Source of the DNA: a virus
Lineage: Duplodnaviria; Caudoviricetes
Virus record (IMG/VR): IMGVR_UViG_3300028840_005170
Span: 1 to 45,323 of that record
Strand: one strand, 5' to 3'
DNA: 45,323 nucleotides
The notes beneath the pieces were generated by a model that was not told where the DNA came from, ran no database searches, and worked only from the letters and a program-made list of their open reading frames with translations. Both the position numbers and the translations under genes were made by a program. The stretch's first letter is position 1. The number at the start of each line of letters is the position of its first letter. Positions 2,507 to 39,780 of this stretch are shown here, one piece after another.

Positions 2507-2795
2507 TGTAGACACGCTCCAGATACTTGCTGGTCTTGGAATGGAATAGCAGGAGCTTGACGTGCCCATCCTCGGCGAGAATGAGCTGGAACACGATGGC
2601 GTTCATCAGGGCAGGGCCACTGAGGAGCAGCCAATCGCCCCGCTCAAACTCGCGGAGCTTCTCGGCGGCTACCTCCCGGAGCCGCTGCGGATTGAAAATC
2701 TCCGAGCTATCGTCGAAGATAATCCGAATCTCACCGAACACCTCAGCGGCGGCAAAGCTGTGCCCCGCACTTTTCGGAATCCACACCTTAGCCAT
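2493..2795 (-). CDS. Hypothetical protein, 100 aa
   Basis: Tight overlaps with both neighbours, SD AGGAG, alpha/beta pattern (GDWLLLSGP). Confidence 0.7.
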   Translation of the reverse strand: MAKVWIPKSAGHSFAAAEVFGEIRIIFDDSSEIFNPQRLREVAAEKLREFERGDWLLLSGPALMNAIVFQLILAEDGHVKLLLFHSKTSKYLERVYNDES

Positions 2796-4659
2796 TGCCG
2801 TTCTCCTGAAGGTTTTCGCGGTTGCCCAGTAGGACTGCTCGCACCGATTCCATGCTCTTGACTTCGTCGGAGATGTCCCGTTTCATCTGGAGCTTTGCCG
2901 CGATGTGCTCGTCGATAGAACCCGGGCACACGAGGTCGATGTAGGTAACGTTGTTCCGCTGCCCGATACGATGGCTTCGGTCTTCGGCTTGAGCCCGCTT
3001 GTCGTAGCTGTAATCGTTGGAATAGAAAACCTGCGTGCAGCAAGGCCGGCCCTCAGTGCCGATGAGCGTCAGCCCCATCCCGCCAGTTCCTGGTTCGCCG
3101 ATGAGCACACGAGCAGGGCCTTCATTGAAGTCCACTTCGATGGTCTCCCGCTCGCGGTCCGGTGTCTTGCCGGTGAGTGTCAGGTAGGGGATGTTCGCCT
3201 TATCGAGGGCTGCGGAAATTGCATCGACGTCGTAGTGGAACCGTGCCCAGACCACGACCTTCTGGTTTGCGGGCACCTCGTCCTCGAGGATTTCCATCAG
3301 GGCTTGGAGCTTGCCGTCACCATCAGGGATGGGGACGATTTTGCCATGCGTCTGCGTGTCCTTCACGAAGCCCTGTGTAATCTGCGAGAGGCGGAGAATC
3401 ATGGCAATGAAGGCGCGTGCTTCCACCACCCCATCGCTCGCATCGACCGCAGCCTGCATCTCGGCCATGTACCAGCCCGCCATCTGGTCGTAGAGTTCGC
3501 GTTGCCGCTTGCCCATCGGAACGTGGCGGACCGAGTAGACCTTCTCGGGCAGGTCCAGGCATTGGTCTTTCGTAACGATGAAGGAGTGGCGAGCCACCCG
3601 CCGCTTGAGTTCGTCGAGCTTCTCTCGACCCCAGCGACCACCCTCGCCCGCCCAGTCACTCCGCTTGCGAACCGAATCGTAGCGGTTGCGGAAGGCATTG
3701 TAGGTGCTGTAGCCCAGCACGCCCTGTTGCAGGAACTCGAATTGCGAATAGAGGTCGAACACTCCATTGGTGACGGGGTTGCCTGAGAGAATGATGCGTC
3801 GGTGAGCCGTTTCCCCGACCTCTCTCGCGGCTTTGCTACGGCTGGCTGAGGGCGACTTGATTTTGGTGGACTCGTCGCACACCATCAAGTCGAACTCAAG
3901 GGCCTTCAGACCTTCGAGCATACTGCCCACCCGCTCGTAGTTCGTCAACACGATACGAAGCCGTGCATCCGAACGAATCAAGTGGATGAGTTGCTCCATT
4001 CCGTTGTTCCCTGTGCGAAGTCGAATGATGTGCCTCGATAGCTCAACTGGGAGCCACTTGGCCAGTTCATTCCGCCAGGTTCCGATGATAGTCTTGGGGC
4101 AGACCACCAGCACATTGTAGTGCTTCCGGCCCTGGATGCACTCCGCTATCTCGTCGCACACCACCTTCGTCTTGCCCGTGCCCATTTCCATGAACAGAGC
4201 GAAGAACTCTTGATTGTGGAGAGCGTCGAGAGCAACGGCTTGGTGATGGTAGGGCTTGCGAACCGGGAAGAAGTCGCGTTTCCCGGTGCTCGCATCCCGC
4301 ACCCTCACATGGCAGCGGCTGGGATACTGAAAGGTAGAGACCGAAAGCTCAGGGTCGTCGAACAGATACTTCCAACGACGTTTCTCCCGAGCCTGGGCAA
4401 GCTCGATGGTGCGTTCCCAGTACTCGAGGAATACCTGAGCGTCATCGTCAACCTCAACGAGTTCTGGAGCGAACTCGGTGCGGAAGTGGACGATGTTCGG
4501 CTCGGTGGCAGGCACCACCCAGTAGCCGTCAGCCCGATGCCGCTGTTCAGGGAACCTGCGAATCTGCCTCCGCAGGTAGAAGGCCCGCGTATCGCTCTCA
4601 TCCAGGTCCACGCGGAAAGACCTGGCGTCGTAGACTCCCAGCTTCATCGGCCTCGACAT
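2788..4659 (-). CDS. SNF2-family (SF2) DNA helicase/ATPase
   Basis: MEMGTGKT, VCDESTKIK, LSGNP, KVVVWARF, GGMGLTL, QAEDRSHRIGQ motifs; SD AGGAGA. Confidence 0.93.
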   Translation of the reverse strand: MSRPMKLGVYDARSFRVDLDESDTRAFYLRRQIRRFPEQRHRADGYWVVPATEPNIVHFRTEFAPELVEVDDDAQVFLEYWERTIELAQAREKRRWKYLFDDPELSVSTFQYPSRCHVRVRDASTGKRDFFPVRKPYHHQAVALDALHNQEFFALFMEMGTGKTKVVCDEIAECIQGRKHYNVLVVCPKTIIGTWRNELAKWLPVELSRHIIRLRTGNNGMEQLIHLIRSDARLRIVLTNYERVGSMLEGLKALEFDLMVCDESTKIKSPSASRSKAAREVGETAHRRIILSGNPVTNGVFDLYSQFEFLQQGVLGYSTYNAFRNRYDSVRKRSDWAGEGGRWGREKLDELKRRVARHSFIVTKDQCLDLPEKVYSVRHVPMGKRQRELYDQMAGWYMAEMQAAVDASDGVVEARAFIAMILRLSQITQGFVKDTQTHGKIVPIPDGDGKLQALMEILEDEVPANQKVVVWARFHYDVDAISAALDKANIPYLTLTGKTPDRERETIEVDFNEGPARVLIGEPGTGGMGLTLIGTEGRPCCTQVFYSNDYSYDKRAQAEDRSHRIGQRNNVTYIDLVCPGSIDEHIAAKLQMKRDISDEVKSMESVRAVLLGNRENLQENGNG

Positions 4660-33555: not shown

Positions 33556-33597
33556 AAAAGAAAAGCCCCGAACCACCATCGCTGGCGGCTCGGGGCT
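33556..33597 (-). terminator. Intrinsic terminator closing the early small-gene cluster
   Basis: AGCCCCGAGCCGCCA-GCGA-TGGTGGTTCGGGGCT followed by TTTCTTTT. Confidence 0.88.
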
Positions 33598-36824: not shown

Positions 36825-37052
36825 TTAGACCAGAGCCGGGATTCCCAGCTCGGTGCAGTAGCGGCGGAGGCGAGCGGTGCGGCGATAGATGATGCGGCGG
36901 TACTTGTTCCGCATCCGGCGGACCTGGCTCTTGGCCTTGCGGCTGAAAGCTCCGCGCAGGTCGACCGCCTTCCATTCGCCCAAGAGCCTCTCGTTCCGGC
37001 GGATTGCGGCGAGGTGCTCCCAAACGCGCTCCTGCATTCTGCTCTGCGACAT
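36825..37052 (-). CDS. Arg-rich 75-aa protein, first gene of the early transcript
   Basis: SD TAGGAGG; RKAKSQVRRMRNKYRRIIYRRTARLRR. Confidence 0.8.
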   Translation of the reverse strand: MSQSRMQERVWEHLAAIRRNERLLGEWKAVDLRGAFSRKAKSQVRRMRNKYRRIIYRRTARLRRYCTELGIPALV

Positions 37053-37073
37053 CTTCCTGCCTCCTACTCTGTC

Positions 37074-37165
37074 TTCGGATAGGGCTGCCTCGTCAGGCCC
37101 GGGTAGCCCATAATCCCCGGGCGACTCGCGGAGTTAGGAGGGCTCCGCGAGTTTCGGCATCCGAA
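37074..37165 (-). ncRNA. Hammerhead ribozyme, type II; predicted cleavage between 37123 and 37122
   Basis: UGCC-GAAA-CUCGCGGAG[cccuccuaa]CUCCGCGAG-UC/GCCCGGG[gauuaugggcua]CCCGGGC-CUGACGA-GGCA: complete core (GAAA, GUC, CUGAnGA), three paired stems, extended stem II UUCGGAU/AUCCGAA, loop I GGGCU complementary to the stem II bulge AGCCC. Confidence 0.92.
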
Positions 37166-37520
37166 TAAGAGTCTGTGTTCTCCGTCACCGCGGGTACTTT
37201 CAGGCTCGGCTGAGTAAGCCCGGCACCGCTCCGAACTGAAGGAGGGAGGTGCTCGCCCGATTTCCCGAGGCTCGCGTCTCACGACGGAAGCCCGCGTTTA
37301 CCAGAGCATCCCGAGAAATCCTTTTCCACCGTGTGGCGGCCGTCGGGACGGACGGCTCGCCGGTTTCGGATTTCGTGGCCCAGAGTGCCTCTCGCCATTT
37401 GGCGGTCACCGGCGGGAAAATGCTTTGCGAGATACCACGCCCAGCGGTCGCTTCGGTCGTCTCGCCGCTCGTTCCCACGTTTTGCCCGGGGCTTCCAATT
37501 GTCAATGAGCATCAGTTCAT
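37166..37520 (-). ncRNA. Long structured non-coding leader / candidate ncRNA
   Basis: No RBS-supported ORF; long-range pair GGAAGCCC (37496-37489) with GGGCTTCC (37293-37286) enclosing several hairpins. Confidence 0.5.
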
Positions 37521-37525
37521 CTACC

Positions 37526-37554
37526 AGTATCGCACACGGCGATAGAGGTGTCAA
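37526..37554 (-). promoter_or_regulatory. Strong sigma70-type early promoter
   Basis: TTGACA-17 bp-GATACT, extended -10 TG, AT-rich UP-like tract (AAGATATTTTTTGAGAAA) upstream. Confidence 0.88.
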
Positions 37555-37645
37555 TGGTTTCTCAAAAAATATCTTGCATCCTGTTGCATCCAGGAGCCGC
37601 CTCGAGGCATTCCAGAAATAGTCGCCATTTTCCTGGGCTGCCGTG

Positions 37646-37768
37646 GCTGCTCTGCTGCTGCTCTGCTGCTCTGCTCTGCTCTGCTGCTCTGCTGCTGCCC
37701 AGCAGAGCCTGAGGCTCTCTGCTGCTCTGCTCTGCTGCTCTGCTGCTCTGCTCTGCTGCTGCTCTGCT
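37646..37768. repeat. Tandem array of GCTCT/GCT units with a central inverted unit
   Basis: ~120 bp of (GCTCT)(GCT)n, interrupted at 37700-37718 by CAGCAGAGCC-TGA-GGCTCT. Confidence 0.92.
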
Positions 37769-39780
37769 CACACACCGCCATGCCCCTTCGTGCTGGTGCC
37801 TTCGTATTTCCGCTGTTCCCGAATGGCCCACGTCATTCGTGTGGCTGCCACGCTTGCGGCAAGAGCCGCCTCGAACTGCTCTCGCGTGGCATCCCGTGGA
37901 ATGCTCTGGGCTTGAGCCCACGAGGATACCGAGACCTTCACATCGACCCGCATCGGAATCCGGAAGTCGCTGGATTCGGCGATGGGCACCACCCGCTGGT
38001 AGAACTCGTAAGCCCGCTCCCGCAACACGCTCCAGAGATGTGAGTCGTGCACAAGGTCGAGAAGCCACGGGTCGAACTCGGGCCCGAGCTGTTCGTCGAT
38101 TTCCGTGGCCTTGAGCTTGGCGTGGTCTCCCGCGGTGCCTTGAATGATGTAGTTCACGCCCTTGTACGAGTGCTTTGCGTGAAGCCGATAGATGCGGCCA
38201 AAGTAATTCTTGACCCAGCCACGGACGCGGCACATGGTAGCCACGAGCTTCTGGAACTTCTGGATTTCTGGAATCATCGTGTGATACTCGGCGTAGAGCT
38301 TCTCCGCTACCGCTGAGGTCTCGGCATTCGTGAGGTGCTTGGCTTGCTCCTTCATGGCGGTGCCTGACACCAGAAGCTGGTGGAGCTTGGCTTCCATCCG
38401 CTCATCACCACGACGGAGGGCGAGCACGAGCACCGCGGTGAGGGATTTCAACAGGGCCTTCTTGCCCATCCCATAGATGAACGAGAAGTTCTGGGTCTTG
38501 GCGAATTGCCGAGGGACGCCCAGCATGTCTGCGAGGAATTGATGGAAGTCGGCGTCGATGTTTTCCGCATAGGCCTTCATAATCATCGGGCTCTGTGTGT
38601 AGTGCCCGAAGATTCGATACTCCATTTGTGAGTAATCAAAGTAGAGGAACACGCGACCGGGGGCTGGGATAATCCAGCCCTCTGCCACGTCGTCAATGTT
38701 CTGGAAGTTCGGGTCGCTCGACGAGAGTCGGCCCGTAATGGTGCCCCATTGCTTGAACTCGGGATGGATGCGGTCGTTCTCGTCGAGCCGGTTATACCAG
38801 CCCTCGCAGTAGGTCGAGAGGAAGTGCGAGAGTCGCGTGGCTCCGGCTAAAGTTTCGCCGAAATTGTCCGGGCACTGTGCCGGGTATTTCGCCGACTCTA
38901 GCCCGAGAGCGGTCCAGGAGGGGTCGCCCGTTCGGGTGAAGGCGATGGGCTCTATGCCCAGCTCGTGCCATAGGAATTTGGTGAGGGCTTTACCAGAATT
39001 GACATTGACCTCGTAGCCCGCCACGCCCTTGATAATCTCCAAGAGCTTGATGAGTTCGGGGAGCAAGCCCATCCAGTCGTCTCGGAGATTCTCCCGGTGA
39101 ATCAGAACGCCACGAATCTCGGACTTGAGCAGGAGCTTGGTAGTCCGCTTCTCAATTTCCCAGATACGCGTGGAAACTGCGGGGAGCTTGGCAAGCAGTT
39201 TCAGGCGGAGCTTCGCAGCCAGGCACGCGTCCCGTTCGGCATAGGGGCCCAGCACACGGATAGGAACGCGTCCGAAATCCTTGGACTTGATAGATTTCAG
39301 ATAGGCTGCTGGCTTGTCGTCTTTGCGGCCACCGACGTAATCAGCAGCGGCAGCGGCAAGCGAGTAGCCTCGCCCGCCGAATCGCTTGTCTCGTTGTTCG
39401 TCCACGATTCGCAAGAGCACCATCGTATCCTCGATGGGTCCGGCAAACTCAATGCCGTCGAAGTGCATAAAGCGAGCGTCGAACTTCGCATTGTGATTCG
39501 CATACAGGATATCCTTTCGTGCGAACAGAGTGCGAAGGTACTCTTGCACCGCGGCGAGCGGGAGATTCTCGTATTGGTCGACCTCTTGGCAGTGGTGCCG
39601 AATCGGAAGATACCACGACTCGGTGCCTTGCTCGTTCGCCAGAGCATAACCGCAGACACGATGCCCGTGGAAGGGCTTGAACGCCTTGTCCTTATCATCC
39701 CAGCTGGTGGTCTCAACGTCGCAGACCACCACGGAATTTTCGGACCATTCGGGCAGGGCCTTGAGGTCTTGAACTATCAT
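37768..39780 (-). CDS. polA: DNA polymerase, family A, with 3'-5' exonuclease
   Basis: CDVET, NHNAKFD, YAERDA; TITGRLSSSDPNFQNI, DYSQMEYR, RQFAKTQNFSFIYG, NYIIQGTAGD, VHDS. Confidence 0.96.
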   Translation of the reverse strand: MIVQDLKALPEWSENSVVVCDVETTSWDDKDKAFKPFHGHRVCGYALANEQGTESWYLPIRHHCQEVDQYENLPLAAVQEYLRTLFARKDILYANHNAKFDARFMHFDGIEFAGPIEDTMVLLRIVDEQRDKRFGGRGYSLAAAAADYVGGRKDDKPAAYLKSIKSKDFGRVPIRVLGPYAERDACLAAKLRLKLLAKLPAVSTRIWEIEKRTTKLLLKSEIRGVLIHRENLRDDWMGLLPELIKLLEIIKGVAGYEVNVNSGKALTKFLWHELGIEPIAFTRTGDPSWTALGLESAKYPAQCPDNFGETLAGATRLSHFLSTYCEGWYNRLDENDRIHPEFKQWGTITGRLSSSDPNFQNIDDVAEGWIIPAPGRVFLYFDYSQMEYRIFGHYTQSPMIMKAYAENIDADFHQFLADMLGVPRQFAKTQNFSFIYGMGKKALLKSLTAVLVLALRRGDERMEAKLHQLLVSGTAMKEQAKHLTNAETSAVAEKLYAEYHTMIPEIQKFQKLVATMCRVRGWVKNYFGRIYRLHAKHSYKGVNYIIQGTAGDHAKLKATEIDEQLGPEFDPWLLDLVHDSHLWSVLRERAYEFYQRVVPIAESSDFRIPMRVDVKVSVSSWAQAQSIPRDATREQFEAALAASVAATRMTWAIREQRKYEGTSTKGHGGV

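Follow-up and report, generated by a model that had tools for sequence, protein, structure and literature searches.

A long non-coding leader with a boxA-like element and a predicted type II hammerhead at the head of a phage early operon

The early region of an uncultured marine phage opens with some 400 nucleotides between a strong promoter and a ribozyme motif, and the question raised by this locus is what such a long stretch is for. The initial annotation had read it as an abundant immediate-early non-coding RNA with a ribozyme-made 3' end, possibly a decoy or anti-defence RNA, or an RNA antiterminator comparable to HK022 put. The window, that is the whole stretch of 45,323 nucleotides analysed here, is a circular tailed-phage genome of ~45.2 kb, as judged from its terminal overlap, and its sequence is present in one sediment and one seawater metagenome run. 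All of its recognised genes, including those for terminase, portal, tape measure, helicase, ThyX, and DNA polymerase A, are on the minus strand. GroES, ThyX, and a glycosyltransferase are also encoded by the phage (window 28953-29381, 40682-41608, and 5480-6562, minus strand).

On this strand, the early region runs from the polymerase stop codon at 37768 through a GCAGA-repeat spacer and a promoter at 37554-37526 to about seven small basic genes and a terminator at 33597-33564, beyond which co-oriented genes continue. Relatives were gathered through DNA polymerase A. They have the same order of polymerase, spacer, promoter, leader, and small early genes, with the promoter at the equivalent place 3' of the DNA polymerase. 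The features of the locus are the following.

37526..37554, minus strand: early promoter, sigma-70-type TTGACA-17-(TG)-GATACT, 10/12 match with an extended -10; predicted +1 near 37520
37163..37520, minus strand: non-coding 5' leader of the early operon, ~360 nt ahead of the hammerhead, ~398 nt if cut at 37123
37499..37510, minus strand: rrn-type boxA-like element GCTCATTGACAA, 16 nt past the -10 hexamer
37446..37467, minus strand: 21/22-nt repeat, with a second copy at 36824-36804 directly after the gene 1 stop codon
37286..37496, minus strand: predicted multi-branch domain closed by an 8-bp helix, 37496-37489/37293-37286
37315..37374, minus strand: locally stable predicted subdomain, GAAAUCC/GGAUUUC around GCCGUC/GACGGC, pairing probability 0.9-1.0
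37079..37159, minus strand: type II hammerhead, Rfam RF02276 at 41.6 bits (gathering cut-off 37), also found by a descriptor scan
37060..37065, minus strand: Shine-Dalgarno (SD) sequence AGGAGG of gene 1, inside a start-associated motif, ACAGAGTAGGAGG, common to two other early genes
36825..37052, minus strand: gene 1, the first early gene, a called gene for a basic, Arg-rich protein of 75 aa
36760..36801, minus strand: 13-bp GNRA hairpin with GACAAAT/CATAG flanks; further copies at 36255-36214, 35988-35947, and 34972-34931
33564..33597, minus strand: strong intrinsic terminator of 15 pairs and a U-run, which closes the early cluster

The spacer that separates the early promoter from the polymerase (window 37645-37770) is of low complexity, has similar repeats in the related locus L057 and the virus record G001, and possibly lies near a genome end or a replication origin. 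The early promoter is not unique in the window, as a perfect sigma-70 promoter with an extended -10 is located at 4746-4718 (minus strand), ahead of the helicase. In G001, the perfect-promoter counterpart is also found at the helicase gene. The gene 1 protein matches no PHROG or Pfam family, and its look-alikes in the Atlas are weak and helical only. Of the 37 window proteins scanned, none was recognised as an RNA polymerase or an antiterminator.

The claim that the leader lacks an RBS-supported open reading frame is borne out, the only SD-like/start pair found being AAGG/AGGA at 37323-37322. Codon log-odds are negative in all six leader frames, compared with positive values in eight of the nine real genes tested. 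The longest leader ORF has no homologue, and five candidate ORFs are absent from the protein collection. The hammerhead is the sole Rfam match in the window, and 37520-37163 matches no Rfam family. The leaders of the relatives have no Rfam match to known RNA families, and no tRNA or tmRNA has been found. Apparent resemblances to c-di-GMP-I, glutamine, twister, pistol, and hatchet RNAs find no support in Rfam.

No homologue of the leader was found among GenBank phages, related loci, virus records, or viral contigs. A blastn search of GenBank phages returned nothing, the one hit of blastn and nhmmer among 71 loci was L056, whose sequence is that of the window, and the comparison with five virus records gave E-values of 0.1 or worse. 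An nhmmer search of 138 hammerhead-upstream regions gave no homologue, and pattern scans of viral contigs for the leader were empty. The collections behind these searches left out the closest relatives by polymerase identity, P0002 (79%) and P0004 (52%). In a local alignment with 137 hammerhead-upstream regions, the best score was 32 against a null maximum of 26, which came from one short patch and was judged spurious. The leader bodies of the relatives are mostly not alignable. One of 136 leader pairs, that of the window with L067, has a weak similarity (uncorrected p ~0.01) that is seen nowhere else. A leader motif of ~47 nt, with no Rfam match, is common to L061 (10430-10476) and L064 (10155-10200). 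No strain variants over the leader have been found in four DNA runs.

The repeats that had been noted in the leader are indeed present. The 21/22-nt repeat at 37467-37446 recurs at 36824-36804 with one indel, and its exact 15-nt core is beyond chance, as only 13 of 1000 shuffles reach 15 nt. The shorter match, CGGGCGAGCACC, is found both at 37259-37248 and at 34517-34506, and a 12-nt match of this kind is ordinary (reached by 695 of 1000 shuffles). The 10-mer CGGGCGAGCA, a pattern picked post hoc, is present three times in the early region (minus strand).

The proposed structure fares less evenly. The two arms of the long-range helix, GGAAGCCC at 37496-37489 and GGGCTTCC at 37293-37286, are in place, and the helix is predicted in the released piece with a pairing probability of 0.98. 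On the other hand, it is a chance-level find, since perfect helices of at least 8 bp average 1.5 per shuffle and at least one occurs in 75% of 300 shuffles, and its probability falls to 0.0 in the uncleaved transcript to 37060. Two of the nested stems, GAAAUCC/GGAUUUC and GCCGUC/GACGGC, are predicted at 0.9-1.0, while the third, AGCGG/CCGCU, is predicted at 0.0. The ~398-nt piece, which includes part of the hammerhead, has a folding z of -1.23, and this becomes -0.66 without the hammerhead. Sliding windows over the leader give z below -1.4 once only, compared with -3.9 to -9.8 for the hammerhead and several intergenic regions, and the leader holds 22 helices of 6 bp against a shuffle mean of 20.6. 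Folding prediction therefore provides weak evidence for a folded leader RNA. Leaders in the equivalent slot are well folded in L057 (z -4.0) and L068 (z -2.4), which is not the case in L060 and L073 (-0.2). The L057 leader (2564-3005, ~440 nt) is clearly folded, occupies the same slot, and is unrelated in sequence to that of the window.

These observations bear on the reading in which the released ~398-nt piece is a functional non-coding RNA, for instance a sponge for Nus factors or a decoy that diverts a defence system or an RNA-binding protein of the host, with promoter, boxA, and hammerhead serving its quick production with defined ends. Such an RNA would fit the presence of a long non-coding slot in eight related loci, two of which (L057 and L068) have a clearly folded one, and also the closed domain that the released piece is predicted to form (8-bp helix at 0.98). 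However, the leader itself has a z of -0.66 and helix counts at chance level, no sequence homologue is found in phages, family loci, or 137 hammerhead-upstream regions, and the leaders of the relatives are mostly unalignable. With folding unexceptional and no homologue found, the earlier proposal of an abundant, stable, specifically folded, or decoy/anti-defence RNA receives no support, and we regard a functional RNA here as unlikely.

The boxA-like element at 37510-37499 was absent from the initial annotation. It is the sole perfect match in the window to GYTCWTTGAMAA, which can be taken as a natural rrn-leader boxA pattern because, among 151 genomes from one bacterial phylum, 23 have it upstream of 16S rRNA, the exact 12-mer of the phage not being among them. 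Within the same 151-genome set, the rrn-leader variants CATT and GAC occur in three and four genomes, respectively. Compared with the gammaproteobacterial boxA consensus as given in PMC5725501, GYTCTTTAANA, the phage element has two mismatches. Both deviations occur separately in natural rrn leaders. In one MAG in which the pattern was checked, no rRNA is located beside any of five matches.

The comparison covered twelve loci, namely the window itself and 11 relatives in which a promoter follows the polymerase (L069 ends too early). In a loose scan that allowed three mismatches, a level reached by 0-32% of background windows, and in which the automatic promoter choice for L068 is probably wrong, a boxA-like motif lies within 200 nt of the promoter in eight of the 12, three of them at +16/+17. 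All eight long leaders have the motif, and none of the three short ones, in which the SD follows the promoter by 30-52 nt, does. The count leaves aside L062, L063, L075, L076, L078, and more distant loci, in which the post-polymerase genes differ, as well as G001/G008, in which the early cluster is elsewhere and no promoter or boxA is seen by eye. A second boxA-like motif in the window, CCCTTTGAAAAC at 36201-36190 (minus strand), overlaps the start-associated sequence of the third early gene. No boxB or boxC has been identified in the leader, and no boxB-like 5-bp stem adjoins boxA in the predicted fold.

The antitermination role that had been suggested for this RNA is plausible in one form, via an rrn-type boxA and host Nus factors, but not through an RNA like HK022 put, which is described as a double hairpin of ~65 nt (PMC8632103). 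A factor-independent, put-like antiterminator would suit a promoter-proximal non-coding RNA upstream of a terminator-closed operon, in a phage whose 37 scanned proteins include no recognised RNA polymerase or antiterminator. The first 90 nt of the leader are nevertheless without a double hairpin, the leader shows no similarity to the HK022 cI-nun and cro-cII regions (p ~0.5), and those HK022 regions are themselves without a boxA-like motif, which makes a put-like leader very unlikely. An antitermination system similar to lambda N/nut has also been considered, in which boxA together with the 21-nt repeat or the GNRA hairpins would be nut sites for the Arg-rich gene 1 product and would give read-through at 33597. 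We consider this very unlikely. The gene 1 protein is without a PHROG or Pfam match and its look-alikes are weak, no boxB-like stem is located by boxA, and the hairpins are 13 bp long and placed where relatives have cleavage signals, against which stand the boxA-like motif, the Arg-rich 75-aa product of the first gene, the beyond-chance repeat at 37467/36824, and the strong terminator ahead of co-oriented genes.

The hammerhead consists of stem III (37151-37125), stem I (37122-37097), a CUGACGA core, and a GCC/GGC stem II. It has the GAAA / NUH / CUGANGA core of RF02276, with stems I and III closed and stem II open. The GUC triplet ends at 37123 and the predicted cut is after this position, with the start of gene 1 70 nt downstream. 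Loop I can form a 5-bp pseudoknot with the 3' tail (GGGCU 37109-37105 with AGCCC 37086-37082, duplex -9.4 kcal/mol), a contact described as typical of most type II motifs (Perreault et al. 2011, PMC3088659). The promoter, the hammerhead, and the non-coding character of the annotated ~400-nt RNA are sound at the level of sequence, and its ends would follow if the hammerhead is active.

Folding of the longer transcript complicates this picture. With its 5' context included, stem I loses to leader sequences in ViennaRNA predictions (pairing probability 0.00-0.04), and the active hammerhead fold would cost 3-8 kcal/mol of ensemble energy, a value computed with the pseudoknot outside the model. The 8-bp helix is predicted to form by 37280, before stem I is made, and it would sequester one arm competing with stem I. 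The predicted competition could also mean that the leader is a ribozyme switch, in which 37491-37484 or 37194-37184 pairs with stem I and keeps the ribozyme off until a ligand, a protein, or Nus-assisted folding releases it, timing early expression. The chance of this appears slim: the competing arms are short, GC-rich, near-palindromic, and expected by chance, the pseudoknot (-9.4 kcal/mol) is outside the model, and most hammerheads of the family have no leader.

Hammerheads of this class recur in relatives. RF02276 matches are found in four of nine virus records, with nine in G002 (seven above the cut-off), three in G006, two in G001, and one in G005. In L073 8493-13782, which corresponds to ~64100-69430 of G002, a 70-kb phage, ten type II hammerheads are detected by descriptor, nearly one per early-gene junction. 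Nearly all of them are placed immediately 3' of a stop codon and ahead of an RBS, and a leader of ~340 nt terminates in the first. The leaders of L067 and L064 likewise end in a hammerhead.

A pattern scan of viral contigs returned at least 131 stretches from about half of the collection. For the analysis, 127 distinct matches were used that have 250 nt or more of upstream sequence. These are pattern matches, with related phages not collapsed, and the counts that follow are of sequences and not of independent events. Among the matches listed, 111 of 127 lie within 10 nt of the stop codon that ends an open frame 40 or more codons long, compared with 6% of 560 control positions. Under a stricter rule of 60 codons and no overlap, 76 of the 127 listed adjoin an upstream stop (control 4%). 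An SD and start codon follow within 50 nt in 95 of the 127 matches listed (control 14%), and a pseudoknot of at least 4 bp can be drawn in 99 of the 127 listed (18% when permuted). Because 111 of the 127 matches listed adjoin an upstream stop, the usual 5' product of this viral hammerhead class would be an mRNA. The class is thus normally an intercistronic cutter, so that a 3' end made by a ribozyme does not point to a dedicated non-coding RNA.

This argues against a functional released RNA, as the hammerhead class normally releases coding mRNA. In its favour, a hammerhead also ends the leader in G002, L067, and L064, and a cut 3' end behind stem III could protect the released piece. An extended form of the proposal can be drawn up, in which the family has a fixed slot of strong promoter, rrn-type boxA, and ribozyme exit for making large amounts of a payload RNA, specific to the lineage, within minutes of the start of infection. 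The released boxA-bearing RNA of 398 nt would build up in this phage and titrate NusB/E or a defence protein, with the effect of curbing rRNA synthesis or immunity in the host. We consider this form quite unlikely.

Early-gene junctions also carry elements of other kinds. All four copies of the GNRA hairpin are located after early stop codons, and double changes are observed at nine of 13 pairs among the copies, a figure that overstates covariation because several of the changes stem from one register-shifted copy. The four hairpins are candidate processing stems of the RNase III type, although most copies are without a lower stem. By eye, the junctions of G001 contain a tRNA-T-arm minihelix, long imperfect stems, and two hammerheads, and those of L057, L061, L064, and L065 contain long stems or T-arms. 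Hairpins resembling T-arms or minihelices are also seen at early junctions or in leaders at L153 1310-1365, L057 2930-2965 and ~3400, and L073 ~8255. ARAGORN calls no tRNA at the T-arm-like hairpins, which are possible processing signals for RNase P/Z. An uncatalogued multi-stem element is found in two copies, at window 36753-36640 and 35570-35450 (minus strand). It starts with GAGTCTGTCCC, has an SD-like TAGGAGG in a hairpin loop, and ends with CACACGCCCG..GGGCACAGA just ahead of an RBS. The first copy has a z of -5.1, and the element has no exact-pattern match in viral contigs.

Based on these observations, we propose, with a probability of about 0.6, that the locus is a T7-like early operon in which the leader likely recruits Nus factors of the host through boxA and is removed by cleavage, so that the first mRNA gains its 5' end. 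Host sigma-70 polymerase would start near 37520, and NusB/E and partners would bind boxA, shielding the long untranslated stretch from Rho and chaperoning its co-transcriptional folding. According to PMC8632103, assembly of the rrn Nus complex depends mainly on boxA and the complex chaperones co-transcriptional folding; Nus factors are also described as able to block Rho, in a context-dependent manner (PMC5725501). The hammerhead cut after 37123 would leave a structured 5' end of 70 nt on the gene 1 message, and RNase III would cut the four 13-bp hairpins, so that the 4-kb transcript would be separated into cistrons as far as the 33597 terminator. The released ~398-nt piece would then be a processing product.

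Several results weigh against this proposal. It is weakened because 360 nt far exceeds what a boxA needs. The folded slots of L057 and L068 (z -4.0 and -2.4) suggest a payload, and three relatives have short leaders and no boxA. Also, the ViennaRNA competition for stem I speaks against a simple picture of leader removal.

The individual parts are already known, and the 400-nt leader itself would matter only if it is stable and functional. No report of phage leaders that combine boxA with a hammerhead, or of the adjacency of hammerheads to stop codons, was found in the literature searched, which excluded most subscription journals. The T7-like boxA operon proposed here can be compared with four known systems.

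As in an rrn leader, whose Nus complex comprises NusA, B, E, G, SuhB, and S4, a long untranslated RNA that requires folding and processing has a boxA-like motif close to its 5' end. Unlike an rrn leader, the phage element has two deviations from the consensus and no identified boxB or boxC, and it drives mRNA rather than rRNA. HK022 put is likewise a promoter-proximal non-coding RNA in an early operon, but the phage leader has a boxA-like motif and neither the ~65-nt double hairpin nor any sequence similarity to put.

In T7, where host promoters A1-A3 serve the early region, GCTCTTTAACAA is found between promoter A3 and gene 0.3 (its label as boxA is our own), and the terminator is TE. The T7 early region has further RNase III sites besides R1.1. 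R1.1 itself is described as an RNase III site of that region (PMC6121014). The phage locus resembles the T7 early region in its host promoter, a leader with a boxA-like motif, small early genes separated by cleavage signals, and a closing terminator. It differs in that the first cut is predicted to be made by a ribozyme, the leader is longer, and no phage RNA polymerase gene has been recognised.

For hammerheads, tandem copies flanking genes have been described, as has a hammerhead 13 nt before an early ORF in the haloviruses HF1/HF2 (PMC3088659). Processing of polycistronic transcripts by bacterial and phage hammerheads is presented in PMC6765202 as suggested and unproven, with the purpose still open. 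The phage hammerhead shares the permutation, core, and loop I-tail pseudoknot of the RF02276 type II motifs, its position just before an early-gene RBS, and its serial copies in relatives. Unlike known type II hammerheads, it ends a long boxA-bearing non-coding leader. A further difference from known hammerhead systems is that, in this phage family, equivalent early-gene junctions behind a boxA leader may hold a hammerhead, a long stem, or a tRNA-like minihelix. Together with the stop-codon adjacency of 111 of the 127 matches listed, this interchange makes the idea of a ribozyme as a substitute for RNase III directly testable.
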